This document shows, in pieces, positions 15,001-34,153 of a DNA stretch of 34,566 nt. Every line of letters starts with the position of its first letter. The first letter of the stretch is position 1. Both the position numbers and the translations under genes were made by a program. Below the pieces are notes generated by a model. It searched no databases, was not told where the DNA came from, and was given only the letters and a program-made list of their open reading frames with translations. Source of the stretch: Rhizaria sp. SCN 62-66 (lineage: Eukaryota); assembly GCA_001724265.1 (NCBI GenBank), contig MEDY01000660.1:186001-220566 (forward strand). Direction: 5' to 3'.

Positions 15001-15704
15001 CTTCGCCCCCGAGGCCTTCGTCGCCGCCACGCGTCAGGTACGACTTGATTCCACTTGTGATAGTTATATTTTATTAAATCTTCTTTTAGTTTATTTTATT
15101 TTGATGCTTATTTTCCGAGATGTACCAACGAGATAACACAATGCCAACTTGCTCACTTTTCTTCCTTATTGTCCCGTCCCTTGCTTTGCTTTTACTCTTT
15201 ACACAGGCTGCTGCTCACAGTCAGAAGGTTTCACTCGAGTCCCTGCGCCTCGTCGTCACCGTCTCGACCACGCCCGTCTCGCTCACGGCCCCGGCCGCCA
15301 CGGGCGCCGCGGCCGCCGCGGGCAAGTTCACCTTCGTGGGCTTCGTCGTTCACGGCGCAGTGCTGGAGCCGCCCCAATCTGCGGCCGCCACGGGCACGCT
15401 GCGGCTGGGGCCCAACGAGCTGGACGTGCCGCTCGACGCCGTGACATTCTCCTGGCGCGTGACGGCGCCTGGTGACGCCGCGGCCGACGCCGCTGACGCC
15501 AAGAGCGGCGAGGCTCTCGCGATCCCGGCCTTTATGGACGGCTCGCGCGCCATCCACGTGCTCACGCTGCCGCTGCGCGCCACCGCCGCCGCCGCCAAGG
15601 CCACGGTCAAGGAGATGTGGGCGCAGCGGTCCGTGTGCGTCACCGTCGCAGACTTCTTCAACGTGCCCGCGGCCTTCGCCGAGGCCGCCGCCGTCAGCAA
15701 GTAA
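1..15704 (+). CDS. DYNC1H1: Cytoplasmic dynein-1 heavy chain, 5'-partial, 18 exons in window (~4,342 aa visible)
   Basis: Exons joined by hand at GT..AG junctions that keep the frame: <3-883, 1076-1610, 1792-1938, 2105-2302, 2464-2661, 2823-5000, 5147-7187, 7350-8137, 8274-8855, 9026-9205, 9360-9557, 9711-11216, 11362-12537, 12695-13132, 13303-13710, 13841-14254, 14375-15037, 15207-15704 (TAA). Motifs: tail [16 protein letters not shown]; linker [21 protein letters not shown]1 GPAGTGKTE (4824-4847) and [11 protein letters not shown]2 GPPGSGKS (5909-5932) and [34 protein letters not shown]3 GPPGSGKS (split by intron 7); AAA4 GTSGSGKT (8523-8546); stalk coiled coil/MTBD in exon 12; AAA5 [15 protein letters not shown]6 [14 protein letters not shown]. 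Motifs such as LESALRFGN and [12 protein letters not shown] point to the cytoplasmic-1 class rather than axonemal dyneins. Confidence 0.96.
884..15206 (+). other. 17 spliceosomal GT-AG introns of the dynein gene (120-192 nt, AT-rich)
   Basis: 884-1075, 1611-1791, 1939-2104, 2303-2463, 2662-2822, 5001-5146, 7188-7349, 8138-8273, 8856-9025, 9206-9359, 9558-9710, 11217-11361, 12538-12694, 13133-13302, 13711-13840, 14255-14374, 15038-15206. Each shows an abrupt GC-to-AT switch, a donor GTACG (15 of 17; the others GTGCG and GTATG), a pyrimidine tract and YAG. Removing them restores one continuous dynein frame. Confidence 0.93.
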
Positions 15705-16657
15705 GTGTTCTTGCGAAGCGGTTAAGGCGAATGCTTGACTGTTAAGATTGAATCTGTTGATGACATTTTTTCATTCATTTTTTTTGAAAGTTTTTTTTTT
15801 AATGTGTGTTTTTTGTTATCCTGACTCAGTTTTGAGCGCATGCTTTATTGTAGTGTTGATACTAGACTGGAGATCTTGTTTCGACGTAACGGTAGAGCTA
15901 CTTAACAATTGAGATCAGGATGTTTCTTTATGCCCGCTTTTTATTTTGTATTGGCAAGATATTTTTTGATTTTTCGGAGGATTTTGTTGATTGGAGAAAA
16001 GACTAGACTCTAATACGAGCGGAGCCATGACGTGAGCTGTTGCTTGTTTAGTTTGCTTTGTTTGTTGAAGGTGGAGTTTATGCCGTTGTTCAAATGTATG
16101 TTTGTTCTAATCGTGTACAAAATTTTATGGCCGTGTGGTTTGTGTTGTCGTTTCATTTTTTTCGTTTTGTAAGCGTGTTTGAGCTGGAGACTCACGCATA
16201 CTTATTTTGATTGCAATACATCTCGCACAGTGATGCAAAACATTCTTTGACTTCACACATGTATTTATCATGCACTGTATATTGATTAACAAGACCAAGC
16301 TGCTGGCTTTTGCTGAACACTTCCTAAATTGATACTTCAGTAGCCAACTCGAGAGCAATAACCAATACCTCAATATATGCAAGAAAGTCTTGTACAAAAG
16401 TGTTTCTGAACTGATTATATCTGCTTCTGAAACAAACTTGCTCTGTATCATACACAGAAAACACACACATAAACTAAATATATAACATACATTTCAAACG
16501 ATCTCTCATACTTCACCGCCGTGTCAACACAGCAGCCCAACAAAAACGCAGCAACGAACTCCACCAAACGATGACGGCCCTCTTTGGTTGGCCAACGCCC
16601 CCACCCGAGGCGCCGCACCCGGCCGGGAGCGAGCTCACGCACGCGGACCATGCGTGC

Positions 16658-17457
16658 TTACGCGTTGCCCATGTCCGTCTCCAGGTTGGCGACCTCGGTG
16701 TCGACGTCGTAGAGCCGCGCGCGCAGCTTGTCGAGCGCGCGCTGGATCTGCTCCTGCGCCGCGCCCAGGCGCTCGATCTGCCGCTTCTCCTGTTCGCGCA
16801 CCGCCGCGCTGCTCTTGGCGACTGGGCGGGGCGGCCGAGAGCGAGCGCAAGATGAGGAGCATGTCGAGAGAGATGGAGTGAGAAAGTGAGAGATTGGCTT
16901 GTGTTCGAGTTCAAATGAGGCGACAAAAGGATTTAAAAACGTTATGATATATATTCGAATCGAGATGGCATATGTCGGCGGAACGTACAGAAGGGCGTGA
17001 GCACAGTCTCCGGAAGCCTGCGCGGCGGGGGTGACTTGAGCACCGCGAGTGCCTGCGCCGTGGGGTTCACGAAGACGGTCTCATCGTACTTCTCGAAGAT
17101 CAGCGGGTCGCCGCCCGGCACGGCGCCCTCGCCGAAGAGGCGCAGGTTGTGCTGCAGCGACACGGGCTGCTCCTGGAGCGCGTCGACGAAGGTGATGGTG
17201 ATGTGCACCGTGAACTCGCCCCAGCCCAGCTCAGAGACTTCGTAGGGCGGCTGCGACAGCACGCGGATAGGCTCCGCGAAGGACTCGTGGAGCTTGAAAG
17301 TGACGTGCTTGATGTAGCTGGACATGTCCTCGTTGTCGAGCGAGCGGACGTAGAGGATCCAGCGGTGTGAGTTGTCGCCGTCCTTCTGCGCCAGCAGGAA
17401 GCTCGCGTTGCCGTACAGGAACGGCTTGGAGAAGGAAACGCCGGCAATGCGGGTCAT
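16658..17457 (-). CDS. YAF9: YEATS-domain protein (Yaf9/GAS41/YEATS4-like, NuA4/SWR1 subunit), 210 aa, 2 exons: 17457-16989 and 16821-16658
   Basis: Exon 1 has the YEATS signature (KPFLYGN, SHRWILYVR, VTFKLHESFAEPIRVLSQPPYEVSELGWGEF). Splicing out 16988-16822 joins it in frame to a C-terminal coiled coil (AKSSAAVREQEKRQIERLGAAQEQIQRALDKLRARLYDVDTEVANLETDMGNA, stop TAA). This is the typical Yaf9/GAS41 architecture. Exon 2 is absent from the supplied ORF track. Confidence 0.9.
16822..16988 (-). other. Intron of the YEATS gene (167 nt, phase 1)
   Basis: Minus strand reads GTACGT...CTCAC...CCCAG; removal gives an in-frame fusion to the coiled-coil exon. Confidence 0.87.
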
Positions 17458-18134
17458 TGCAAGAGGAGTAAACCGGTCAATCCGGACGTTGAGAGCCTTG
17501 TGTGTGGTGGAAAGAGACGGGGAGTGGCTGGAGAGGGGAGGGGAGAGAGCTGGGATGGAGTCGGCAAAGCAACGGGGAAGTTGTTTTGAATCAATACAAT
17601 GAGATTTCGTTTGCGGAGAGTTTAATTACAAAAACATGTATAAACAAACGGTTTCAATTCGCGGCAGCGGTTTCAGCGCGACTGACGAAGGGATGAGTGC
17701 AAGGGAGTGCCGTCTTTTCTCGATCTTCGCCTATCTTGACGTTGGCTTGTGGTCGATCCTGGGGGGTTGGCTCTGGCTCCCACACACTGCATGTTATCCC
17801 TCCTGTCTCATTTGTAAATACAATAACAGAAATAAACATATGTGCTCTCGAAATTTCAATCCGTTCGCATTCTAGAGTCAGATTACATCAGCAGGAGTGT
17901 TTGATGACCTGTTTATCTTGTCCCTCAGCAAGCCATTGAAGCCAGGCCCGTTGCAGCTTGGCGCCCACCAACTCGAACTGCGGCCCATCGGTGTCTCACC
18001 TTCGAGTTGTTATAAGAGTTTGTAGGAGCGAAACCTTAATTAAATTAGTTTATTACACACTACCACACAATTATATTGCGACACGACTCATCATGCATGT
18101 TATAATTCCACTTTTTCGCTGCCTGACTCGCCAG
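17458..18134. promoter_or_regulatory. Divergent (head-to-head) intergenic region between the YEATS gene and DNA2; putative bidirectional promoter/5' UTRs
   Basis: 677 nt between the two predicted start codons on opposite strands. Inferred from gene orientation only; no specific element identified. Confidence 0.4.
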
Positions 18135-21100
18135 ATGGCGAGCCTTTACAAACGCAAGGCGCCCGCCACCGCTCCCGCTGCAGTATCAACCCCTGCCGCG
18201 CCCGCACCACCCCCGCCGCCGCCGACCCTGGCAGCCCCGCCCGCTTCGGCCCCGCGCGAGCCTATATTCGGCCCGCTCCCGCCGGTGCCCGCCGCGCGCT
18301 CCCAAGCCGCCACAGTCAGCTCTCGCTCGAGCTCGAGCTTGGACGCGGTTGCAGCCTCCGCATCGCCCGTGCTGCCGCACACGGCGACGCGGCCCTGGCT
18401 GCGGCCCCCGCCCGCGTTCCACCGGCTCCTCGTGCTCGCCGCGCCCTGCGAGGACCACGGCTTCGCACCACTGCCACCGCCCGTCACGCCGGCGGCCTCA
18501 GCAGCACAAGCGGCAGCACCAGCGGCGGCGGCGGCAGTAAATGCGGCGGTAGTAAATGCGGCGGCAGTGAATGTTGGCGTTAGCCCGAACATCGGCGTGA
18601 GCGTGAGTGCGAGCGTGAGCGCCAGCACGGACGCGAGCGTGAGCGCCAGCACGGACGCGAGGGCTGAGCGGGCGCGTCACGCGCTGTCGTGTTGCGGTAT
18701 CGACCTCGACAGCAATGGCAACATCAGCCTTACGAGTGACGGGGACACAATTGACGACGCGAGCAATGCCCAAATCAACAGCAGCATCAAAACGAGTCGC
18801 AGCGGCGCCCCTGCCGGTCCCAGCGCCGGTGTGGTGCGCCAGCTGGCCGTGTACTGCTGGGACATGGCCGCCAACACCCCGGTCATGCTTCTGCTGCGCG
18901 ACGAGTGGGCGCGCAACACTCGGCATGCGTGCGATCACAGTAATTCCAGCGCTAGTTCTAGCTCTAGCTCAAGCTCTAGCGTGGGTTCTTTCTCTGGTTC
19001 TCGCTCATGCGCGTGCTCTTGTTTGCCGCCGCCGCCGGGCCCGCCCTTGGTAGCTTCCCCTCTATCGGCGCCCTTGCACAAAGGAGACATAGTGCACGTC
19101 ATCCGGCCGGTGCTTACCCATCTAAGTACCTTCTACAACAGCAGCAGTAGCAGTAGTGCAGCTGCTCGTATCACGATTACCACACCCTCTGCTGCTGCAG
19201 ACACGACTGCGGCCGCCAGTGGGCCTGGAAGTGTGACTGGCATCGTTGCGTCGTTGCCCACCGCCGCGGTGGCGTCTATTGCGCACGCGTCCGTGACCGT
19301 GGGCCGCATGGCCGTTGCAGTCGCAGTTCAAGGCCGACGCAGCCGGGAAACACTGGCGGCCGCTCTCATCAACGCCATCAACGACAACGGTATTAACAGC
19401 GTCGCTGGCGCGGTGTCACTGGACTGTGCGATGACTGCGACCGACATGTTTGCTGCAAGCGTGTCAGCCTCAGCTCGCGACACACACGCCGGCTCAATTC
19501 CCGCGGCTTTTGCGACAATTACGCACGGCAGCGCGCTTACAACAGCCACAGGCGCAGGCGCAGTTTCTGTGTGCGACGGCTGTAGCCTGGCGTATGCGTG
19601 TCTGCAAGCGCTGCATTCACACTCGTACTCGCTGCCGCAGTCAAAGAGTCGCAGTGGCGGTACCGCGAGCAGCGCGGCTAGCGCAGGCGTTGTGTTTAGC
19701 CGCGACTGGTGGCGGCTGTGGGCCCTGTCCGTCGCCCCGTCCTTGTCGGTCCCCACGCCCACTGACTCTGGTGCCGAGACCGACCGGTCGCCGTACAGCC
19801 ACACGCATATCAAACACACTATCAACACAAACAATGTTACTCATAGTACACCTGCTGCTGCTGTTGCTGCTGCTGTGCGCAACTATGGCCCTCTGGCAGC
19901 ATCAGCAGCGTCCGCGCTCTCTGCCGTCCTCGACCCTCTCTCAAGCCCCAGTGCGACCGGCAGCAGCAGCCCCGCAGCCCCGTTCCCCGCGTGGCCGGTG
20001 CCGCCGCTGCTGCTCACGGTTACCGCGCGACACGGTCTGCTGGTGCTGCACCCGGACCTGCTGCTCTCGCCCACAGTTGTCTCCACCGCGATGGGCTGCG
20101 TGCGCCGCGCCGTGCTGACAGAGCGGCTCGGAGAGACGCCATGGGCCGCGGGCGGCGCGGCAGACATGCTGCTTCCCAGAACGACGGCGAAGACTGACAG
20201 TCGGAGTGCCGATGCAAGTGCCAGTGCCAGTGCTGGTGCAAATTTAAGTGGCTCTGGTGGCAGCAGTTCTCGGGATGCCACGACAAAGGTTGTTGATAAG
20301 AAGGATACCATTAAAGCTGACGCATATGCCGACGACGAGGACGAGCTTGCGATCAATCAAGAGGAGTCTCTCTACCTGGCCAACTCAGCCGAACTCGAGT
20401 GCGACGCCTCAGGCCCGCTGCCGCTGCCGCGGCGCTTTCCTTTGACCGCGCCTTCCTACGCCGCCGCGCTGGGCTCGGCCGCGCACGCCGTCGCACAGGC
20501 CGCGCTTGCTGGCGGCGACTGGCGGGCGCGCGCGCTTGCCGCGGCCGCCGACGCGGCGACAGAGGCCGCCGCGCGCGCTGCGCTGGCGTGCGGCGGCGGC
20601 ACGGAGGGGACCGGGACTGCGACCGTGACAGGCTTGGTCCTCAACAGTGCCGGCGACAGCGACAGCGGCGATGCGAGTGGTACTGTCACTCCCAGCGGCG
20701 GCGTGTTTGGCGGCGTTCACGGGATTACCGTGACGCCGGCGCCGGTGCCGAGGAACAAACCCAACTACAATGCGAACACGAATGGTAGTAGTAACAGTAA
20801 CAACGCTGCAGGTACGACAAATATTAACAATGATGACGTTTTTTGACGTGTATTGTTCATCTTTTATATTCGGCGGTCAATTTCTCTCATGCTGTTTCTG
20901 TCATCGTCTTTATTCTTGCTTATTCGTCATAGCGTCGGCAGCGGCTGCCACGGCTGCTGCTGCGGCAACAGCCGCCGGCGCTGGTGCCAGGGTAGCCGAC
21001 GGCCGACTGCTCAAAACGCTTTGGCTCCGCCCCAATGAGCTCATCGCAGCGTTTTTGATTGATGATGCCAGCAGCAAGACAACAAGTGTCAGTTCAACCC

Positions 21101-24100
21101 CGAGTGCAAACAGTAGCAGTGCTTTGCTCCTATCCATTTTAAAAGAGGGCGCGGGCGCAATCCCAGAGCTTGAGACAACACTATCTGCAGTGCTGTCACA
21201 GCTTTCCAGCTTTCATTTACCTGCACATGCTTTATTGTCGGAGCAACATCAGTTTGCACGGGCATTGTCGATGTCACAACCAACGGTGCACTCATTGCTG
21301 CTGAATCTTGCTCAAAAGTCGAGTTCTGCCAGCGACTCCGCGAGTGCTACTGCTGCGCTCCACGTTGCAGCCGCGTATGTCCGTGCGTACATGTTGGCCC
21401 GGCAGCGCCTGCTGCCGCCCTCAGCGATCCCCCGCCTGCCCCGCCTTCACAACAACGCCGCTCTCCACAACTCCCCGACTCTCGCGACTCTGAGTGCACC
21501 TGGTAACAACAGCTACTACGGCGGCCCCGCGTCGCTGATGCCGGCGCCGGTGCCCGCGCTGCGGCGGCTAGCGCTCTCGCTGCTGCCGCGCATGCAGGCC
21601 TGGGCGCGCTGCTTTGCCGCGCCGCACGCGCCTGGACTGGGGCCGTTCGCCGCGGCGGCGGGCGCGAGCGTTGTCCTCAACGCGAGTGCCAATATGCGTG
21701 GCTGTGGTACAACCGCGAATGAGAATGCACGCGTTGGTGCTGCGGGACGTTGTAGCCACATTATCTCGTCGGGTGCTGATGCTTCTGCTGCTGCTGCCAC
21801 TGCCCCCTACGCACGAGCCCTCGTCACAGCCTCTGGCCCCGCATTTGCCTCCGCGCCCGCCGGCGCTCCAAACCGTGGCTACGGCCCTGGCGCCCCAGCC
21901 CCGCCCCTGGCCTTGTCGCAGCTGCCGTCAGCGTCCTCGCTGCCCACGGTGACCGCGGGCGCGGTGTGGAGCGTGGAAGAGGCCGTGACAGCGCCCGTGA
22001 TGGGGCTCCGGGGCAGGCTCGACGGCGTCGTCATCGCTAGCATTACGCCGCGCGCGGCGACGAGCAGCACGAACAACACTAGCTACGCCACTAGTAGCCA
22101 CAACAGTAACAACAACCAGGGTGGTGCTGGTGGTGGTGTTATCGGCGGCGGCGCCGGACAAGTCGTTGTTCAAACGACGACGGCGACGGCGGCGGCGACA
22201 ATGCGTCATGTTGCGAACACAAACAGCCATGGTGCTGCAAATGCTGGTGCTCTCAACTCAAGTCCCTTGAGTCTAAGCGCCCAGAACATGTGGCAATGGG
22301 ATCCTGTTGCTGCCTCCGCTGCTGCCGCTGCTGCTTATGTTGGGACTGCATCTCCCACCAACGGTGCGAACGTCACACTGTTCCCCCAACCCCAGCCTAG
22401 CCAGCGCAGCGGCGCGCCTGGGAGCAGCTACAACAGCAACAGCAGCAGCAACAGCAACGGCACAGTGACTGTGAGCAGTGTGGCGCACGCGGAGACGCAG
22501 CTGCGCGCGGCGTCGGCGCTGTGGGCCAGGCTCTGCCACAGGATCGTTTCTTCGAAATCAAACAGCAGCAACAACAATAGCATGAACGACAGCAGCGTTA
22601 ACCCAAACGCGATTGCGAATGCAGTCGCTAGCAATGATACCACGTTATATCACGTTACAGTCGCAGCCCCTAACCCAAGCACTGGCAACACTAGCAGCAG
22701 CAATACCACTGGCTCTAATTCTGGCTCAAATACGGGATATACCAGCAGTAATAGCAACAATCACACGAACGTTGCCCCGCGCCCCGGTCCTAACTCTCGC
22801 GCCAGCGCCCCGGTCCGCTTGGACTGCAACTGGCCGGTCCCAGCTCTCCCCATCCCCACACCTGCACCCGTGCCTGCATCCTCACTATCGACTGCGACTG
22901 CCAGTGCGAGCGTGACTGCGAGCGTTGCTAACGGGTCAGTTTTCCCCGCCTACGCCGTCACCGGCGGCCCCGACGCGGAGCCGCCGTGCCCGCTGCTGCC
23001 GCTGGGCGCCGACGCGGGCGCGTGGGTGGCCGTGGCCGCCGAGCCCGCGCCCGCGCTCACGGTCACCAGCATGACGACTACGACTGTGGCCACAACCACG
23101 ACGACGACAACAACTACGACGACGGCGACCGTTACCGGTGCTAGCCAAGGTGCGCGTCCCAACTCTCTTCACATTGCCAGCAGTCAAGGTGGCAGGCATA
23201 TTGTGAGCGGCAGCACTCTGGTGACCGTGGGCACTGCGGCGGCTCGACGGCTCACGGTCACTCTGCCGGGTCACCCGTTTTCGCCCTCCGTCTGCCCCGG
23301 TGAGTGCACTTTCGTCGGCACGAGTACCAACGCCAGCAACAGCGCGAATCCCTCTGCTGTGACCTCTGGCGCTGTTTACAGCCACGGCGGCGGCGTGGCC
23401 GTGACCGCGACGCCGGTCCCTGCCCCCGCTACTGTCAGCTTCACTGAGTCTGAGGCGTCGGGGCCCTACGCGGGCCTCTTTGCGGCCATTCGCGGCAGTA
23501 GGCGCTGGTGCGAGGCCGTGTTTCCACACTTGATGACCCCGGACGCGCCGGTATCATCACCACCATCAGCAGCAAATACAGCGGCGAACGCAAACAGCAT
23601 TAATTTTGCAGTCGCGAACAATGCAAGCTGTCGCCAGGGGGTGCTGTCGCGCTGGCCCGCCGCCGTCACCGTCACGGCGGCAGCAGCTGGGCTGTTCTCG
23701 CAGTCTGCGCCGCCCCTGTCGTCCTTCGTGGCAACGCCGGCCGCGGTCACGGCGGCGGTGGCCACGGTCACTGCAATGTTCCCGTTCCCGCCTGGCACGG
23801 CGGGGCGGGTGCTGTTGGCGCCCTGTATCACCGCCACATCAACAGCAGCACCCACGCCTGCTGTGAGCTTTAGCAGCGCGGCTGCGGTCGAGAATAAGAG
23901 CAGCGAGTCGATGAACGGCTTGGGCGTTGTTAGCGTTCCGTTCAACGGCTCCCACGGCCTCTTTATTACAGGCCGCCACTCCTCGTACAACAACATGTCT
24001 GTTGTCAACAGCACCGGAGTAAACCAGGCGACTGCGGCTATTAGTGCTCCGATGAGCGCAGGGACAGTGGCGTCTGACGCAGTGTTAGCGCTGGCTACAT

Positions 24101-27100
24101 CCCGCCTCGAGTCGCTTTCCTGGGCGTCCGGCGCCGCGACGTCGCTGCTGCTGCCCCTGGAGCTCAAGACATCGCGCCCGGGTTCGCTCGCGCACTCGGC
24201 GCAGGCCGCGCTGTACACGCTGCTGCTGGGCGAGCGGTACGCGCCGCAGCTGCGCGGGCCCGTGCCGGCCTCGCTGCTGTGGGCCATGCGCGACACGCGG
24301 CGTGGCGTGGGGGCCAAGCTCGCGGACCTGGACAAGGCGACATCGAACAACAAAGCGAACGGCAATGCTCAGAACAGCTCGAACGCGCCGGTTGGTGCCA
24401 GCTCTTCAGCAGCGAATCCGAGCGTCCCCTTAGAGGTTGCTGCGCGCGCTGCTAGGGGGCTGCTGCTAAGGGAAGTCTCGGATATTGACGCGAGTTTGAT
24501 GGCGGTCCCGTACAGCACAGTCGAGCTGCCTCAACAGCCGCAGCAGCAGAATGCAGCTGTTCCTGCCACGGCATCTTCAGGTGACAACAGCAACCGCCCT
24601 GCGAGTTCAAGCGCTCGTCCTGACTGCTTTGGAGAGAGTTACCTGGCAGATCTTGAGTCAGAGGGCGTGGCGACGCTGGCAGAGGCCGGGTCAGAGCTTG
24701 GTCTTGCGCTGCCGCTAACTGTGGGCAACATCCTTGCTTTCGGCGAAACCACTTCTGATCTCTATAGCAACACAACTGGTGCCGAGTCAGAGAGCGGCGG
24801 TGCGTATCCCACCGACATGTGCCCCGTCTCCCCCCTCGTCGCGCCGCCCGGCGAGACCTCCGTCGTCTCCGTCCCCGCGGGCCACGTGACGCACCTCATC
24901 AGCACGCGCAACGCTATTGCAGCGGCGCTCGCCCGCGCTGCAGCATCAGCGGCGGCTTCAGCTGCAGCGGCGACAGCAGGTGAGGCGGCGGATGGCGACA
25001 TCGAGACTGATGCAGTGAAGAATCTCATTAGCAGCATGAGTAGCTCCACTGCAGCGACTGACGGCAGCCCTACTTCAACCGCTGAGACCTCCCTTGTCGT
25101 CGCACACCCTCGCTCCGCCAAGCCCCGGCCACAAACACAGCCTCAGTCCCGCCCCTGGGCCGCGTTGCAGCAGCGGCCTCAGTGGTCCCCGGTGGGCTAC
25201 CTGCCCCCCTGCACGGGCAACCCAGCCACGGACTGCGTGTACTGCCCCGTCAAGGCGCCCTGCGACGCGCTGAAGCGAGCCGAGGAGGCCGCGCTTACCG
25301 CGGCGATCGACGCAGAGAGCAGCGGCAGTCTCAATGGCGCTGAGACGACCGGTGCGGCCGCTAAGATGACGGATATTGAGGACGTGTGCTCTGGCGCCAA
25401 CACCGCGAACTCCGCTGCAACAGCTCACAGCTTGCGCCCCCGCGCTGCGGCCGCAGTGAGCCGCGCCGCGCTGCGCGCCGCCCGACGCCGCACCGCTGTG
25501 CAGGCGTGGACTCGCGCGCTCGATATCGAGGCCGACGCGGAGGTGCGGGACGCGCTTGCGGCTTCGAAGCACAACAGGAGCGATGCCATGGGGAATAACA
25601 CGCAAGCGACTAGCAACAACAGCAATACGCACACTACATCTGTTTCTGCTGTCTCTGCTGGCCCGTGGTCTCGTGTCACGTCTGCTGTGACCGCGACTCT
25701 TAAGGGACCGGGCTCTGCTGCAGCTGCCGTTGCCCCATTGGCCCGTGCTTGGGCGAGCGATCGTGAGACTCAATGGGGTCTGAGCGCTACCAGTGCGGGT
25801 GCAGGTACTCGCACGGGTAAGTGTGAATGTGAGCTATCCGTTGTCACAGGTGGCTATTGTTCATGTGTCAATAATGTTTCTCTGGGCATTCAGTGTGCGC
25901 CGGACTCGAATAATCGCAAGTACAGCAAGAGTAATCCCCCCGAGTTGTTCCTTGTGTCTGCTAAGAAGGCGCCGGGTCGCCGCGACACCGCTACGAAGAG
26001 CACCAAAAACAAAAGGAGCAAGACTAACACGAGTGAGAAAACCCGTTCCACAAGTAAGATCAATGGTAAGTCGAACGCGAACGAGAACATCGGCCGCACC
26101 GCGTTTGTGTTTGGCGAAAGCGACAACAGTGGCAGCGAGGACGACGACGGCACCTACGAGCGCGACGAAGGGCTTGAGTACTGGCACTATACGTTTGCTC
26201 TCACCCCCACAGGTCCCGCGGTCGAGAGTGACAAGTTCTATATTTCGCCTAACACGAAGAAGGCTATTAATAGAAGCGCCAGCCAGATCACTATGACTGA
26301 TGGCGACAGTACCAGTCCAAGTTCTCCCGCCGCCAGTGTCGACCTGCGCGATATCTATACCGCCGGCGACATGATGACAGCGTCCGCGCGCGTCGCACCT
26401 GCACCGACACACGCGCTGCTCACGGTCACTCCTCCCACGCTTGCAGTCACTTCGCATGAGGGCAACCGCGAAAACACTTTTATGGTAGAGGAAGAGCTTG
26501 TAACACTGCCGACTTGGGCCTATTTTGCCCCAGCACACACGCACACTAACATCGTCGACAGTCAATTCGACTTGAGTGATGCGCTGTGGCCGTCAGCGGC
26601 AGACTCTGCGTACCAGCTATCAGTCCACCACGCAGCCCTGTATTCACAGCCGCCTCCAGCCGCCGCAGCTACCTCAACGGCAGCGACAGCGCAGCCGTCG
26701 CTGCCGCTGCTGCCGCCGCTGCCGCCCCGCCCCGCCACATCGGTTGTCGCTTCCATCTCGGTGCTCACAGTCACTGCAACCACGGTCACCGTTGTCGCCG
26801 CGGGCTCGCGTCCCGGCGCTGGAGCGAACACTCACGGCCACTGCTACCAAGGAGTGAGCCAGGGTGTGCCGGCGCCCGTCGCGCACGCGGCTGCCCTTGC
26901 GTTAGCGTCGAGCAGTGACGCGGGCAATAAGAGGGACGCTGTCGACGAGGGAGACGATTTACGTTTCCGCGGTTGCGGATCAACTTTGTGGGGTGGCGTC
27001 CTCTCACCCCACATGTACGCCCGCTCCGTGCTTTTCTGCGGCAAGCCCCCGCCGTCGGTGCCGCTGGGGCCTGAGTGGTTTGAGACCGCGACAGCCGCTG

Positions 27101-30100
27101 TGCTGCCCGTCGTGCCCGTGGCGGCGGCGCTGCGGCGCGCGCTGCTGTGGAAGGCACACTCCGCGACTACAGCAGCAGCAAAGAAGGCATCTGCCATTAG
27201 TGCATCGACTGTAAGCAGCACGACTTCAAACGCGACGAGCGTTAGTTTCAGCTCGAGCTCTAGCGTGCGTCAGGTTACAGCGCACACAGTACATGTTACG
27301 GCTTCTTCCCCCGCACCAACGCACATCACCACGACAACGTCAACAAGTAACAGCTCCGTTACAGCAGTGAGTAGTATTAGTCGCAGTGGCAGTGGCGGAG
27401 CGTCAGACCAGAGCGCTGTGGCTGTTGCCGCGCCAGCCTCGGTCGCCCTGTCGTTTCCCCCGTCCCCGGCCTCGCGCACGCTGTCGCCCTGCGTGTTCAG
27501 GCTGTTTCCCACCGCGTGGCAGTCCCGTCCGCGCGCGCAGAGGGCGGCCGTGGTGGGGCTGCTGATGGGGGCGGCGATGCCAGTGACCGCTGACACTGCG
27601 CTTCCTGCTGCTGAGGGTACCACATCCACGGCAACTCAAGCGACTGAGAGTGCGCTCACAGCTACGAGTAATGCAGTCGCAGCCATTGACAACACAATGA
27701 TTGATGAAAACACTTGCTGTATGTCGTCTGAGAATATGAGTCCTTCTGGTTTGAATGCAACCGAGGCAGCATCAGCGACTGCTGTGTCAGCCTACGACAA
27801 AAACTACTGGATTGGCGACGACTCCGACTCAGATGATGACGAGAGCTGCGCCTCTGACACGACGAAGACCGAGGCCGACGCAAAGCCCTTGTCGACCGCG
27901 ACCGTGCTCTCCGCTCGCCCCGACCCGCGCGTCCCGCCCGGAGCTCTCTCGGCGCGGCTCCTGCGCCACGCGCTGCTCGACGGCCGCCGTCCGCGCTTCG
28001 TGGCATCGCTCGCCCCGCTCTGGACGACTGCTCACGGCCATAACAATGCTCCACTTTGCGTCCCTGTGTATACTACAGCGTCTGGCTCCGGAGCTGTTCG
28101 TGTCGCGACGACACCAGGTATGCGTGCCAGTGCGACTGCGGCTCCCGACGTGCTTACATTGATGGGCGAGCTTTCCAAGTGCCCGTTGGTGCCGCAATAT
28201 GCCCGTGCAGCGCTTGAGATCCCCTTAGAAGACCTATCTCAATCTACAAGCAGGATTGATAAACCTGCAAAAAATCACGGCGACGACTCGTCGCATGCAG
28301 AGTCCCCGTTGCACCGTCTGCACACGCTTCCCCGCTCTGCTCCCGCTACCGCCGCGTCCTCCCCGCTCGCCCTGCCCTCGCTCTTCCCCGCCCCGCGCCC
28401 GCACTCTCTCGCTGAGCTGGTGACGGCGCTGAATGCCGACCAGCGCACCGCCCTGGCCCGCTGTCTTACTGCGCGCGACTACGCGCTTGTGCGCGGCTAC
28501 CCGGGCACCGGCAAGTCGAGTCTGCTGGGCGCGCTCGTCGCCGTGCTTGCGGCGGCGGGCGCGAGCGTGCTCGTCGTTGGTTACACGCACGCCGCGGTGG
28601 AGCAGGTGATGGAGAAAGTCGTGTCGATCGATCAGGCCGATGCGCTGACCAGTGTAAACGCGGTGGTTGATGCGACAAAGCGTGCGACGGAGGCGCGCAA
28701 TGCCGCTGCTTCCGAGAATGGCCAACCTGCCGTTCACATTGACGCTGTACGCGATACGTTTGTGTCGAAAGACGCGCGCGCGTATGCGCTGAGGTATGGA
28801 GGCTGGCTGCGTGCGCGCGTGCTGCGAATTGGCGGCGACAGCAAGAGCAGGAGTGACGCAGCGGTTGGTGACGGCGACACTGGTGCCGATGCCTTTGCTA
28901 CAGATAAATACGATGATGATACTCGTAACAAAGACGATGAGTCTGACGATGAACCAACTGCAGAGACAACGACCGTGTCGGGGTCTGAGCCTGAGGCGGA
29001 GACTGATGCCCCTCTATATGCGTATTCGTTTGTTGCCATTGTGCGCGCCGAGCGCCGCCGTTTGGCGCGCGAGCAGCTGCGCTCCTTGGACTCGATTAGC
29101 TCACAGTCGCAGTCAGCACCGAGTGGGCCCGGCTCACGTGACGATGGCCGCCCACTGCTCCCACTGCTCTCCCAGTCGCTCCCCTCAGTCTCCGCTGCTC
29201 TATCGCGTCGTACTGTTGTCTTTGCCACATGCCTTGCCTGCCAGCGCAACCCGTACCTGCTGTCGCGCGCCGGCACGTTTGACTACGTGATTTGCGATGA
29301 GGCGTCGCAAGTCGTGGTGCCGACGCTGCTGGCGTCGCTGGGGCTGCTGAGGCGGCGCCCCCAATCGTTTCTCACGGTCACTCCACCATCGCACACAAGC
29401 GCAACAGCTAATACCACGGGCGGCGTGTGGGCTAAGGGTCCGTGGTGGCTGTCGCAGCGCGCGGCGTTGCCCGGCGCATTTATCCTCGTCGGCGACGATT
29501 ACCAGCTTTCGCCGCTCGTTCTTAGTGACAGCGCCACTGCTAACAACAATAGCAACAGGAATGACTGTAACACAAAGGAAGAGACCAGGAGTGCGATCTT
29601 GACGAACGATTCTTTAGCAGTAACAGGTTCTGTTCGTAATGTTGCGGCAGGTACTGCATCGTCGTTACCGATGCTTCTTTTCACTTCATCGTCCTCTCTG
29701 CTCACAGTTTCCCCGCTTGCGTTGCTGTGCGCAGCTCACCCGGCCGCGGTCGCCCCGCTGCGCACACAGTACCGCATGAAGCAGGCTATTATGGCGCTTG
29801 CGGATGAGGTTGTTTACGGCGGGCAGCTGGTCTGCGGTCGCATTGATGACGGCTACAATAACGGCAACGAGGAAAATAGCACAGATGTGAGCAACAGTTC
29901 GAGTGCGTCTCTTTCTACGAAGCAAGACCAGACACAGCAGCCGTGGTCACCCGCGTTAGTGATGGCGTTATGGCTTGCCAAGTCCGGCGACACGACTCTC
30001 TCACATGCAACAGTGACATCAGACGATAACTTTCCGATTTACCAGACTCCGTGCACGTGCCCAAATGTCTTTGGCAACCACAGTTTGAGCAACACAAGTA

Positions 30101-32191
30101 CTCAAAGTGCATCATCGAGTTGCCCTCGTCACCAGTGGCTACTCTCAGCTTTGTCTCCATCGCATCATCTTTCGTGGCTTGATACCCGCCAAGTGAGTCT
30201 CGTTGACTCGAAGGAGGCCGCCGTGCTCACACAGTCGCCGCTGGGATTTGCGGCACCGATGGCAGCTGTTACTACACCGTCAGGTTGGAGCCCGGTCACG
30301 CCGGCGAGTAACGTGACGATGCCTGTCGCTATGGGCGCGGGCAACACGATTACATCCCAGTCTCTCTTGACATCAAACGTTGGTGCTCTTCGTTCAAGCT
30401 TAGGCGATCAACCCGTATCTAGGTCTGGCTTCACTTCGAGGACTAGCTCGAGTTCCAGCTCTAGTTCAGCAATGTTTGCAGCGCCTCTTATGTCACCATT
30501 GTCCGCGTCTGCGCCAGTTCCAGCGCCAGCGGTATCACCAGTGGCAGCGTCTGCGTCGCTGTCTAATCTATCATTCACAGCATCTCCTCTTTTCTTCACG
30601 CCTCTGTCGCCGCTGACTCCGCGCATCCTGTCGCCTTTCCTGTCGCAACGCCAGCCGCACTCACAGTCACGACTACACTCATCTCCGTTCCACTCACCAG
30701 AGCCTTTCAGTGCCAATGCGAACCATATCCGCAACGCGAACAGTAGTTTTACCAGTACGAAGCGCAGTGACACTGGTGGTGCGACTGTTGGCCTAACGCC
30801 TCCGATGTTCAACATAGGCGAAGCCGCGCTTACAGTCACAGTATGTACCGCGATAATTGTGTCAGAGTGTGCGATGTTGTTGCAGTCGGCGTTCGATACT
30901 GCAGCAGATGCAGCAGTCTCTGCCGCTGTCGATGAGCTGATGCACACTGCTGGTGCGGCTGCTGGTGATGGCGTGACTTTGACGGAGGCAACGCTGTCCC
31001 AACAAGAAGCAGCGATTTGGCACTCTCTTACAACTTTGAGCACGGCATCGGATATTCCCAGCAGCGTCAGTTTGTCCGATGCCAAGTCGTCACGCAACCC
31101 CCAGGCCCACAGTCACTGCGGTTTTCTGTCAGTGCATTCTCTTCAGTCTCTCGCACTGTCAGTTGCGGCCTCTGCTGCGTGGCGCGCTGTGCCAACGAAG
31201 GCACTCGCAGTCATGTCCCCGTATCGGGCGCAAGTTGCACTCATCAGCAAGATGCTTGCGGAGGCTGATGTGGCATCTGCGATTGCGCCAACCAACGCAG
31301 TTTCGTCAGAGAAGATGCATGGCGAGGGTCACGGTGAGGCTGATGGTCATACCATTGCGAAGAACACGATTGAAGATGTAGCGGCTGTAAACGCATTTGA
31401 AGCAGCTTTTGCTTTTATTGTGTCGGAAGTCGGGCATCGTACCTTTGCGCGCGCACACTCACGAATTCACTCACTTCTCCACACGCACGTCGCGCGCTCA
31501 CAGTTACAGACACCTCAAGATTGCTGCTTACAGCTACCTGAATGCTTACAGCCTTGCCCTTTATTGATTCCAGCCCGTCTCTTGCCAAAATTAAGTCGCA
31601 TTGAGGTCGCCACAATCGACCGCTATCAAGGCCGCGAGAAGCCCGCGATAGTTCTGTCCCTTGTGCGCGCCAACGGCGAGGCCGAGACTGGTGCGCTGCT
31701 CAAGGACTGGCGGCGGATCAACGTGGCGGTGACGCGCGCGCGAGACAAGATGATTGTTGTGGGGTGTGGTGACACGCTGGCGGGGGAGGCTGGTGAGTGG
31801 GGGGCGAAATATGGTCGCTTGCTCGCATCGGGAACACTTGTTTACAATAGCAATAAGGCTACTAGTAGCAGCGGCGACAGAGACGCAGGGATGGGTGATA
31901 AGATTGATCCCAGTGATTTCCCGTGCGGCGATGGTGACTTCGACGATCATGACGACTTGATGCGTGAACAAAGTGCTGTTGCAGAGGCGGAGTACTTAAG
32001 GGATATCAGATTTACACTTGCAGCACCAACCAATATAACCCCCGTTATCAGTGCGAATGATTACGCGCACCGCGATAAGAGGGCCCGCTTTGCTGTTGCG
32101 GGAGACCATAGCAGTCCGAAAAACACTCATAGTGCGCGCGCAATATCAGAGAACAACACATCGGTTCAACTGTCACCACGACATCAGGAGC

Positions 32192-32205
<14 letters not shown>
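18135..32205 (+). CDS. DNA2: DNA replication ATP-dependent helicase/nuclease DNA2, very long (2 exons: 18135-20811 and 20933-32205; 4,649 aa to the TAG, probably longer)
   Basis: DNA2 motifs in the expected order. OB-like: RLLVLA, LLLRDEW, KGDIVHVI. Nuclease/Fe-S: LHPDLLLSPTVVSTAMGCVRRAVLTERL (~20046-20130), LGSAAHAVAQ, VEEAVTAPVMGLRGRLDG (~21973-22026), PLELKTS..HSAQAALYTLLLGERY (~24154-24240), LISTRNAIA, LPP..CVYCPVKAPC (~25201-25263). SF1B helicase: LNADQR, GYPGTGKS (28495-28518), YTHAAVE, DEASQ (29296-29310), VGDDYQLSPLV, QYRM, SPYRAQ, TIDRYQGRE, RRINVAVTRAR. The start codon is the first plausible ATG after the AT-rich region and is less certain. Confidence 0.9.
18528..18661 (+). repeat. 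Short coding tandem repeats in the DNA2 N-terminus
   Basis: Three near-identical 15-nt units (GCGGCGGYAGTRAAT, 18528-18572) and two perfect 24-nt units GCGAGCGTGAGCGCCAGCACGGAC (18609-18656). Confidence 0.8.
20812..20932 (+). other. Intron of DNA2 (121 nt, phase 1)
   Basis: CAG|GTACGA ... CTCAT ... CATAG|C; AT-rich. Removal joins the 962-aa and 3811-aa ORFs in frame. Confidence 0.9.
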
Positions 32206-32276
<71 letters not shown>

Positions 32277-32283
32277 NNNNNNN

Positions 32284-32375
<92 letters not shown>
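32191..32375 (+). repeat. (CAG)n microsatellite, at least 57 complete units, interrupted by one TAG and by a 7-N assembly gap
   Basis: (CAG)4 TAG (CAG)23 CA, then N7 at 32277-32283, then AG (CAG)30. True length unknown because of the gap. Confidence 0.97.
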
Positions 32376-32377
<2 letters not shown>

Positions 32378-32609
32378 CCAAGACCGGAGCAAGACAGATA
32401 ACAGTAACAACAACATGAACAGTAATCTGTGCAGCATCGATAATCTTGGAGGCGGGGTTATGGCCCGCGCTGTTGCGTACTTGCGCCGCAATAACCACGA
32501 TGTAGTGCTGCCTGTTGACGCGTTGGATACTTTGCCCGCGCTTGTGCAAGTGCTGTGGCGTCGCGCCGTCGAAGACGAACTCTCGAAACGCGAGGGGCAG
32601 AACGTATAA
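32286..32609 (+). CDS. Probable true C-terminal segment of DNA2 (polyQ + PQDRSK...MARAVAYLRRNNHDVVLPVDAL...QNV-TAA)
   Basis: The CAG (Gln) frame after the gap is open to TAA at 32607-32609. It has the same N/S-rich style as the DNA2 inserts and contains a segment resembling the post-motif-VI helix of DNA2 (recalled pattern, not aligned). AT-rich UTR-like sequence starts right after 32609. Confidence 0.6.
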
Positions 32610-33057
32610 GTTAGGATTATTATCAGCAGAAATTCATTGATTTGTAATGCAGATATTTATGCTATTCGATATTTAGTCACCTGTGGGCTTTCTTAGACTC
32701 GTCAAGAATCGTAGACGCAGCAGTTGTGAAGTGATACCGAATTTGGTATGCTTGCTGTTACGTAAATACATCAACATATCATTTATTCACCTGGTATTAA
32801 TTCTTTTTTCTTTGAGTTAGATTATAATGTTATCACCTTTCCACCCTCTCACTCTCACTGATATTTATCCAACTGTCGTGTCATGCAATATCACTTTCCG
32901 ATAAATTGTAACACCAAACAATTGCTTTGCACATTATCTTGGCCATTATTGAGGTGCTGTGGCATTTCTGCGGACATTACACCCACGGTTAAACAAAAAA
33001 ACTTGCCGATTTCGGACTGATGACATATAAGAACGTTGTTGTCACTGAGGAAAGTTG

Positions 33058-34153
33058 TCATTTGTTGTCAGCGACCTTAAATCCACTGAAGACTGCAAAC
33101 ACCTCCGCCTTATTCAAGTCTGTACGGCACTTCCCAGCTTGACACAATGCCTCAAAGCGCTGCAAGTCAGCGGCATCAAAGGGCGCATCATTGGGGCTGG
33201 TTCAGTCATAATGATGGGCGGGCTTCCTTCCTGGCACAAAAGACATAATGCGACCGACAGGCACGGCGCCGCCCAGCAGAATCTTTGGACACGGCTTAAA
33301 GACAATGAACCATGGTGTGTCGCCTGAGTCTTGATTATCGACAGATTTTTTAGGAATCACACTGCAGGGATACGTCAACACCGTACCAACGGGGTACACT
33401 GTGTCAGTTTCAGCACCCACAGCAGCTGGATTTGTATATTCACCATACACGATATCACTGTTTGGGAGCGACAAAGTTCGCAACATCAGTGATCAGTTGG
33501 AGAACACGTGTCACCATGTCGAGAGTAAGCAGATGAGACATAAGAGCAGAAAACTTCTCGACTGCGCCGCAGGCAACTAGCAAATCGCTGCCGTCAGGAG
33601 TCTTCAGCACTTTTTGAAGCACCTTAATAAAGCTGTTGAACAAAGTCTCGACAGTCTTTGCGTCTTCGTCAGAAGTGTGGGCGATGGTGAACGACTGCAC
33701 TAATGTCGTCACAGCCCCACTCTCGCGAAGTACACCCGGGCAAAGAGGTACAGATAAAGTACTATCGAGCTCAAGCAAAACGGATTCATTTCTCGGCAAA
33801 GAAGCGAGACGACTTACCGCGATATATAGGCGATCTTCGTTGGTCTCGACCTTGGTTTGGGGTGTACTCTCCTCTGTCTCACTGGGCTGTTCCGGACTAA
33901 AAGCAGGAGGATTGTTGTCGACAAGAGACGTCATGCCTGCGGAATCTTAGCCGTAAAAGACAATGATCTTCGCACGGTAAAGCTGGTTCAGAGCTGGAGA
34001 GATTATGGGAGCCGTCGACTGCGCATGGCCGCGCCGAATGGCCGTCAGAGGCATTTTTACTGATGTATTGGACGCGCGAATCACAGCCGCAAGGCTCCGC
34101 AGCGAGCGAAGCATTTGGGCTAACTCTGAAGCGGCAAACCATACACAACGCAA
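33058..34153 (-). pseudogene. Degraded reading frame of unknown family
   Basis: ORFs 34153-33947 and 33934-33455 are in the same frame, separated by one TAA plus 4 codons. ORF 33486-33202 overlaps in a shifted frame and continues past a TGA for 47 further codons to 33058. No recognisable motif; codon usage is unlike the dynein/YEATS exons. Confidence 0.4.

Follow-up and report, generated by a model that had tools for sequence, protein, structure and literature searches.

A giant DNA2 nuclease-helicase gene with very long coding inserts, and signs that UAG is a sense codon, in a rhizarian genome

We analysed a stretch of 34,566 nucleotides (the window) that forms the end of contig C660 in a eukaryotic assembly of 34.9 Mb and 714 contigs (G000, Rhizaria sp. 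SCN 62-66), focusing on a locus on its plus strand, 18135..32609, which by its sequence motifs is a gene for the nuclease-helicase DNA2 and the sole copy found in the assembly. It quite probably encodes a functional, single-copy enzyme of ~4,780 amino acids (aa), in which long inserts would form surface loops and UAG would be read as an amino acid. Near-identical DNA is present in sequencing runs labelled bioreactor, wastewater and activated sludge, three of which are possibly the source runs.

The gene consists of two open frames, 17940-20846 and 20734-32205, that overlap at 20734-20846. Joined by a putative intron at 20812..20932, called from the splice consensus and the reading frame, they give 4,649 codons from the ATG at 18135 to an in-frame TAG, the one stop. 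This sole spliceosomal intron (121 nt, CAG|GTACGA...CATAG, phase 1, AT-rich) resembles those of the neighbouring dynein gene in donor, size and GC content. Exon 1 (18135..20811; 892 codons plus 1 nt) carries a low-complexity N-terminus, OB-like pieces and the start of the nuclease, and exon 2 (20933..32205) runs open for 11,273 nt to the TAG, which agrees with the single intron and the stop-free exon of about 11.3 kb described in an earlier note on this DNA. In two runs a +1 indel precedes the ATG by 5 nt, which fits a non-coding leader before DNA2.

The assignment to DNA2 with all motifs in order, also claimed in that note, was borne out by Pfam (Dna2, PF08696, E 2.6e-12; AAA_11, 1.1e-19; AAA_12, 5.6e-33), by the best PDB match (mouse Dna2, E 6.5e-35) and by a hidden Markov model (HMM) built from 15 normal-size DNA2s, which found 10 blocks in their proper order. 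The Pfam Dna2 match at 20049..20114 includes the first Fe-S cysteine (20097, aa 655); by motif consensus, the equivalent of the metal-ligand mouse His164 lies at 20484..20486. After the intron follow a nuclease strand with EE and the catalytic Asp (21976..22035; Asp at 22021, aa 1256), matched by the HMM, and the PD-(D/E)XK core at 24148..24240, supported by the PDB match and the HMM, with Glu-x-Lys at 24160-24168 (aa 1969) and Gln at 24202. The three C-terminal Fe-S cysteines (aa 2327, 2330 and 2336) occupy 25234..25263, again by HMM and motif, and the helicase motifs follow: Walker A at 28495, DEASQ at 29296, QYRM at 29767 and motif VI at 31720. The positions that the earlier note gave for the cysteines, the Asp and the Glu-x-Lys were confirmed. 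Mouse Dna2 uses His164, Asp278 and Glu299 as ligands, with Lys301 and Gln314 alongside (PMC4716839); the giant protein keeps this whole set of His, Asp, Glu, Lys and Gln, as well as all four Fe-S cysteines (1 + 3). A Dna2 (PF08696) nuclease region followed by an AAA_11/AAA_12 helicase is the DNA2 domain order, so that mouse DNA2 (PDB 5EAN/5EAW; PMC4716839) and the present protein share domain order, active-site set, Fe-S cysteines and all motifs of the superfamily 1B (SF1B) helicases, but differ in length, 1,056 aa against ~4,780. The beta-barrel region has no Pfam match, and its barrel and stalk pieces are recognisable by eye only, against a consensus. A second, normal-size DNA2, a possibility that the earlier note had considered, did not turn up: a PF08696 search of the assembly (two candidates scored) gave one match, and no other AAA_12 locus of this possibly incomplete assembly had a DNA2-type motif VI context.

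The motifs are spread far apart. We compared the gaps with those of 35 reference proteins of at least 850 aa, 7-28 of them informative per gap, and found 11 of the 12 inter-motif gaps to be 2-31 times the reference median. Asp and Glu are 713 codons apart, close to the earlier estimate of about 710, against a reference median of 23 (normal spacing had been put at about 20) and a range of 18-110 in 12 references, the 110-aa loop belonging to reference DNA2 P0066. Cys-1 and Cys-2 are 1,672 codons apart, where about 1,680 had been given. The remaining gaps (reference median in brackets) are Cys-His 129 (26.5), His-Asp 472 (113), Glu-RN 249 (63), RN-Cys 109 (26), Cys-Walker A 1,087 (290) and Walker A-DEAxQ 267 (112), and then, in order, 65 (24), 92 (41), 483 (119), 134 (28) and 34 (34). 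Among 150 DNA2 matches listed, the longest homologue has 2,299 aa. Word-indexed searches returned no homologue of 2,066-6,575 aa, their weak sensitivity making this no evidence of absence, and a metagenome scan of 34 loci gave no close insert-bearing relative among the loci with long frames. In the literature searched, which mostly excludes subscription papers, we found no earlier description of a giant DNA2 or of cercozoan protein inflation.

The inserts, ~3,700 aa in total, are coding and probably translated, as indicated by the open frame, the lack of intron signals, RNA contigs and a model of the helicase. Exon 2 has no in-frame stop, as against a mean of 109 and a minimum of 89 in 200 shuffles and 76-171 in the other five frames. 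The gene has 59 donor-like sites, and AT-rich sequence follows just one of them, that at 20812. The GC content of exon 2 never falls below 42% per 100 nt; dynein introns measure 120-192 nt with 27-41% GC, and the inserts lack the hallmarks of spliceosomal introns in this genome (GTACG-type donor, 120-190 nt, AT-rich sequence, in-frame stops). In the poly(A) RNA run X7, contigs lie within inserts and cross insert-motif borders with no joint: 23844-24234 spans Glu-x-Lys, 28302-28573 Walker A and 29703-29964 QYRM, and the ~700-aa low-complexity insert between Asp and Glu-x-Lys (22045..24138) is covered by 22660-22892 besides the first of these. Runs X5 and X6, of which small shares were used, contributed little.

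Low-complexity sequence makes up 59% of the giant DNA2, 0% of a dynein exon and ~5% of the references. Tandem Repeats Finder reported 47 arrays, short and for the most part decayed, whose periods are chiefly multiples of three, which fits insert growth by slippage. Strain variants in the coding region comprised 12 synonymous, 21 non-synonymous and no nonsense changes (33 in all, with the row at 22337, a simple repeat with partly fitting contigs, excluded and 45 further rows outside the variant listing), and two clean coding indels of 24 and 3 nt were seen. Indels of 1-4 nt at 18625-18632 and 20558-20561 were rejected as alleles, being simple repeats with many partly fitting contigs. The ESM Atlas gave no usable match for the Asp-Glu insert or the stalk and barrel, a result that shows neither novelty nor absence. 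A word, CTCAC(A/G)GT, recurs in the inserts (window 20013-31497) and in other giant open reading frames (ORFs), often encoding Leu-Thr-Val; its presence in two frames suggests a DNA-level rather than a peptide motif.

For the helicase (SF1B domains 1A and 2A, 28360..31800), an AlphaFold2 model based on 39 homologues showed a confident core with disordered inserts: 443 of 1,147 residues had a predicted local distance difference test (pLDDT) score of at least 70 and 581 one below 50. Its top Foldseek match was Dna2, and 421 residues superposed on 5EAN 605-1031 with a root-mean-square deviation of 2.7 A (Z 21.5), the values for mouse Dna2 structures being 2.6-2.7 A. Since Ighmbp2 scored higher still (Z 23.1), the fold by itself does not identify the protein as DNA2. 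The whole-protein alignment (A1), in which references were smeared over an insert, was kept out of folding. According to this model, the helicase core of ~420 residues folds as in mouse Dna2 with the inserts looped out; the nuclease core would fold likewise around its own inserts.

The earlier note had taken the inflation to be specific to this gene, which proved wrong: helicases and genes of the EXO1, RecQ, MutS and MCM families reach 2,200-5,750 aa. The length survey of other repair genes that it had proposed gave stop-free frames from 2,171 to at least 5,753 aa with the same kind of inserts, namely an SF1 helicase (at least 5,753 aa), SEN1-like (5,032), RecQ (3,584 and 2,215), MutS (2,911), EXO1-like of the XPG family (2,867), MCM8/9-like (2,626) and IGHMBP2-like (2,171), the subfamily names being our own reading. 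Their inserts are rich in Ala, Ser and Thr like those of DNA2 and also lie inside domains; in one MutS gene MutS_I to MutS_V span ~2,000 residues, in another ~770. Pol delta, Pol alpha, FEN1, UPF1 and most MCM genes have frames of ordinary size. Searches for kinases, helicases and hydrolases brought many more frames of 2,000-7,100 aa, and on contig C660 (220 kb) 8 of 40 non-overlapping ORFs of at least 400 aa exceed 2,000 aa and cover 35%. Very long stop-free frames include C53:73526-74485 (7,102 aa), C298:22125-39383 (at least 5,753) and C660:154876-172008 (5,711), some extending further through a TAG.

Among 20 hand-picked replication and repair ORFs, length fell with GC content at third codon positions (GC3; Spearman -0.82) and rose with low complexity (+0.85). 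The lengths compared are those of open frames rather than complete gene models, and GC3 is a proxy for expression; with this reading, the correlation suggests that weakly expressed genes inflate. Within DNA2, GC3 is 0.89 in the nuclease core blocks and 0.65 over the whole gene. Compact and inflated genes also differ sharply in intron density, the dynein heavy chain (window 1-15703) having 17 short AT-rich introns and the giant genes almost none. A similar case is Plasmodium, where low-complexity inserts (175 aa in the nuclease cited) are AT-driven (PMC11260460). They are likewise lineage-wide, disordered and placed inside globular domains of DNA-processing enzymes including a nuclease, but the present inserts are GC-rich and Ala/Ser/Thr-rich, with up to ~700 aa per loop and ~3,700 aa per protein.

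The 3' end of the gene bears on the genetic code, a point that the earlier note had not raised. A CAG (poly-Gln) tract at 32185..32376 contains the in-frame TAG (32203..32205) and then 23 CAG, a 7-N assembly gap (32276-32282) and further CAG; a conserved C-terminal helix region ending in TAA follows (32377..32609). The helix matches the C-terminus of P0002, a relative that is 65% identical over motif VI (pairwise E 7e-6), and the TAG thus cuts off conserved sequence. P0002 itself is a metagenomic DNA2 C-terminus with a much shorter insert.

The same pattern recurs elsewhere in the genome, of which ~0.75 Mb of 34.9 Mb was sampled for stop usage. Single stops joining two long same-frame ORFs were TAG in 10 of 10 cases (~600 kb), in GC-rich context. 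Sequence behind a TAG had a median GC of 0.69 and stayed open for 218 aa (n=13), compared with 0.41-0.42 and 10-15 aa behind a TAA or a TGA (n=33 each). Over 752 kb, coding-like sequence followed 21 TAG, of which some are possibly antisense shadows, 1 TGA and 2 TAA, while UTR-like (untranslated-region-like) sequence followed 48 TAA, 52 TGA and 6 TAG (Fisher p 6e-16). Of these 106 UTR-followed ends the six TAGs were looked at individually, and none stood at a convincing gene end: two were intronic, two were followed by 166-187 further open codons and two were probable antisense shadows. Lone in-frame TAGs in coding context were found in eRF1, five kinases (one within an insert), SUV3, two ubiquitin hydrolases (one within an insert) and one SF1 helicase. 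Among 20 fetched kinase, helicase, kinesin and hydrolase matches with stops, 12 had stops solely within or next to introns or in a frame that had shifted, and were set aside. A lone TAA was among the fetched sequences, and it lay in an intron. A SNF2 match with a lone TAG and a kinesin match with a lone TAA were outside the fetched set. UAG is rare, with ~1.4-1.8 per 10,000 codons against 244 for GAG. We consider it very probable that UAG is a sense codon throughout this genome while UAA and UGA are kept as stops; with UAG read in this way the TAG at 32203 is not a real stop of DNA2, and the protein reaches ~4,780 aa. A ubiquitin-like unit (L024, C681:3012-3650), AT-richer than host genes, has an internal TAG at a Gln position and is fused to a domain that by eye resembles a viral tail-fibre chaperone.

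As to the residue inserted, a pattern search returned one match for a tRNA with a CUA anticodon (backwards controls gave 7 and 8 matches). This gene (L181:1489-1561, minus strand, on contig C84) is recognised as a complete tRNA by both ARAGORN and Rfam (58 bits), is followed by oligo-T, and lies on a contig with host-type genes and introns. The tRNA family search scored 63 of 506 candidates, so that more CUA copies are possible. The ARAGORN label 'Pyl' is only the default for this anticodon and was not used. The first five pairs of the acceptor stem equal those of both tRNA-Glu types (CTC and TTC), unlike tRNA-Gln, which makes the tRNA look Glu-derived. The eRF1 gene (L158, contig C63 ~103000-103900, minus strand) has an in-frame TAG in its N domain, at the position of human Glu107, where 104 of 115 homologues have Glu and 10 have Asp; at the SUV3 TAG site the human residue is Asp. 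The protein also carries T32S and G57S, each in 0 of 115 homologues, and T58K, shared with one, the nearest relative. Thr32 of eRF1 contacts the G of UAG and is T32G in Iotanema (PMC5304391). With these changes in its stop-recognition motifs, the eRF1 has probably lost UAG recognition. P0155, a metagenomic protein from a relative, is an eRF1 84% identical to this one, with T58K, Thr32 kept and Val107. Summed by hand over eight TAG sites, Pfam scores disfavour Leu, Tyr and Trp by 7-12 bits and place Glu, Lys and Gln within 1.4 bits. Given a sense UAG, Glu appears the probable meaning and Gln a rather unlikely one, Lys or a mixed reading taking up what is left.

Among the UAG-only reassignments described in PMC10553269 and PMC11687900 the residue is Leu or Gln, and UAG=Glu appears there only with UAA also reassigned. 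The UAG-only examples are the rhizarian exLh (Leu), Iotanema spirale (Gln) and phyllopharyngean ciliates (Leu, Gln) (PMC5304391, PMC11687900). As in these, UAG is internal here, terminal stops are UAA and UGA only and a CUA tRNA is found; with I. spirale the genome further shares a changed eRF1 Thr32 (T32G there, T32S here). The differences are a Glu-like tRNA, a UAG that is very rare instead of widespread, and a UAG inside the eRF1 gene itself. Peritrich ciliates read UAA and UAG as Glu, and Oligohymenophorea sp. PL0344 reads UAA as Lys and UAG as Glu (PMC10553269). Their tRNA-Sup(CUA) is likewise closest to tRNA-Glu, but UAA is a sense codon there, whereas in the present genome TAA serves as one of the main stops, with 48 of the 106 ends that precede UTR-like sequence, and the host does not resemble a ciliate. 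A UAG=Glu code with UAA kept as stop was not found in the literature searched, supplements excluded, and a term search of the main text of a 2026 cercozoan transcriptome paper found no mention of genetic codes (PMC12930898).

Several observations weigh against a functional giant enzyme in an organism that reads UAG as Glu. The RNA contigs have a depth of 2.5-5.5, possibly reflect DNA carry-over and do not reach the TAG; RNA cover is missing in 3 of 30 bins (one intergenic, two in the gene), and the joints listed from RNA contigs include none for intron 20812-20932. The nuclease model, made from a 9-row alignment, has a mean pLDDT of 36 and failed, which leaves conserved motifs and the known expandability of the Asp-Glu loop as the grounds for an assembled active site. 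The strain variants are not different from neutral (p 0.13-0.28), which is compatible with neutral drift in the inserts and is no proof of purifying selection. On the side of the code, the CUA tRNA as a whole is identical to Glu(CTC) at 47/73 positions, to Glu(TTC) and tRNA-His at 46/73 each and to Gln at 36/73, position 107 is Val in the closest relative's eRF1, the summed profile scores of Glu (876.3), Lys (876.2) and Gln (874.9) nearly coincide, many insert TAGs stand in Gln-rich context, and the ubiquitin-like copy has its TAG at a position that is Gln in the genome's ubiquitin. The rival readings draw on these points. If the inserts were spliced out as introns of an ordinary or a non-canonical type, the motifs would regain their usual spacing and DNA2 its normal size, and RNA contigs that are fragmentary and possibly DNA leave some room for this, but such splicing is extremely improbable: no donor other than 20812 precedes AT-rich sequence, 0 stops against ~109 expected is unlike what introns would keep, RNA contigs run from inserts into motifs, and the listed RNA joints have sides of at most 27 letters, join simple repeats and do not fall at insert borders. 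It is also very improbable that the inserts are translated and then removed from the protein, by intein-like splicing or by proteolysis, with the pieces staying associated. Large disordered loops are accessible to proteases; against this, no intein family was matched in Pfam up to E = 1, neither of the two His-Asn-Ser sites (aa 1071 and 1282) coincides with an insert end, and the inserts are low-complexity, numerous and genome-wide. Of the two outcomes that the earlier note had envisaged, folding around disordered inserts thus gains support from the helicase model, the RNA contigs and the absence of intron signals, while removal at the RNA level appears unlikely; the structure prediction it had called for placed the helicase core on mouse Dna2 and failed for the nuclease.

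A crippled nuclease or a decaying gene, in which TAG 32203 would be a real nonsense change, could explain the poor nuclease model, the neutral-looking polymorphism and the beta-barrel region without a Pfam match, but we regard it as improbable given that His, Asp, Glu, Lys, Gln and the four Cys are kept, that the core blocks have high GC3, that this is the only copy found, with a frame intact over 14 kb, and that TAG acts as sense in other genes, eRF1 included. A mistake in sequencing or assembly within the CAG tract could, under any genetic code, account for TAG 32203 alone, which lies in a long repeat beside an assembly gap and is reached by no listed RNA contig; such an error is unlikely and not needed, like TAGs occurring in non-repetitive, well-assembled genes. 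More room is left for a UAG read as Gln or Lys, or ambiguously by a suppressor tRNA against eRF1, with DNA2 and eRF1 partly truncated. The tied profile scores, the Gln-rich contexts, the single tRNA copy found, the scarcity of UAG (1.4-1.8 per 10,000 codons against 244 for GAG) and the Gln or Leu meaning of known UAG-only codes speak for it. We hold it possible but doubtful, as the acceptor stem is that of tRNA-Glu and not of tRNA-Gln, orthologues have Glu (eRF1) and Asp (SUV3) at two of the best-conserved sites, and the failure to find a true TAG gene end argues against UAG still serving as a stop.

Mechanistically, the inserts of the functional giant DNA2 would protrude from its surface as disordered loops, and the hairpin that links the Asp strand to the Glu strand would hold the one of 700 aa. 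The corresponding loop varies between 18 and 110 residues in other DNA2s, and is therefore already expandable. The inserts may have grown genome-wide, through slippage of short Ala/Ser/Thr/Asn/Gln repeats and through drift, wherever translational selection on a gene is weak. A CUA-anticodon tRNA of tRNA-Glu origin would decode the TAG of the CAG tract as an amino acid, and an eRF1 without UAG recognition would leave UAA and UGA as stops. Taken as a whole, the picture that we favour on balance is that of a code with UAG as Glu and UAA and UGA as stops, with UAG at less than 1% of GAG usage, seen just after the capture of a nearly extinct codon and coupled to feedback through the UAG of eRF1, in an organism whose weakly expressed repair enzymes are inflated 2- to 4.5-fold, with 700 residues in one active-site hairpin.

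The giant DNA2 is an extreme natural case of tolerance for disordered sequence, with 713 residues between two metal ligands that are 21 apart in mouse; as a lone oddity it matters less, because the whole proteome is inflated. Of greater consequence is the likely code change: splits between UAG and UAA are rare, the reported UAG-only cases give Leu or Gln, and for this organism the genome, the tRNA and eRF1 are available together. A UAG that is this scarce and has no terminal use bears on the choice between codon capture and an ambiguous intermediate. If true, the UAG in the stop-recognition domain of eRF1 would tie synthesis of the release factor to UAG read-through, and such feedback could fix the new code in place. 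In practice, gene models built with the standard code come out truncated in this organism, those of DNA2 and eRF1 included.

The lineage of the host was approached through several loci. A TPI-GAPDH fusion is present in frame, with an apparent mitochondrial leader (L220, contig C200, minus strand), and to our knowledge this fusion is restricted to stramenopiles and cercozoans. Unusual divergence and an extra Met-Ser at the start characterise ubiquitin copies L022, L025, L026, L027 and L029; several of these consist of one unit plus a short tail, and no polyubiquitin junction, at which an insertion of 1-2 residues would mark Rhizaria/Cercozoa, was assembled. The 18S rRNA gene (L219:1501-5945, contig C706) is divergent, 4,445 nt long, and contains four group I introns. 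The fusion, the Met-Ser ubiquitin and the divergent 18S gene would fit Cercozoa, a group in which a UAG=Leu code occurs. For L10a, in which an insertion marks Rhizaria/Cercozoa (PMC3014934), only C-terminal L10a-like fragments at contig ends were found. A long extension of the first group I intron in the 18S gene may code for a homing endonuclease.

Besides DNA2, the window contains the dynein heavy chain gene with its many short introns and a YEATS gene on the minus strand. A short coiled-coil ORF lies between these two (window 16650-16870, minus strand), and a fragmentary reading frame is found near the contig end (window 33000-33950, minus strand).

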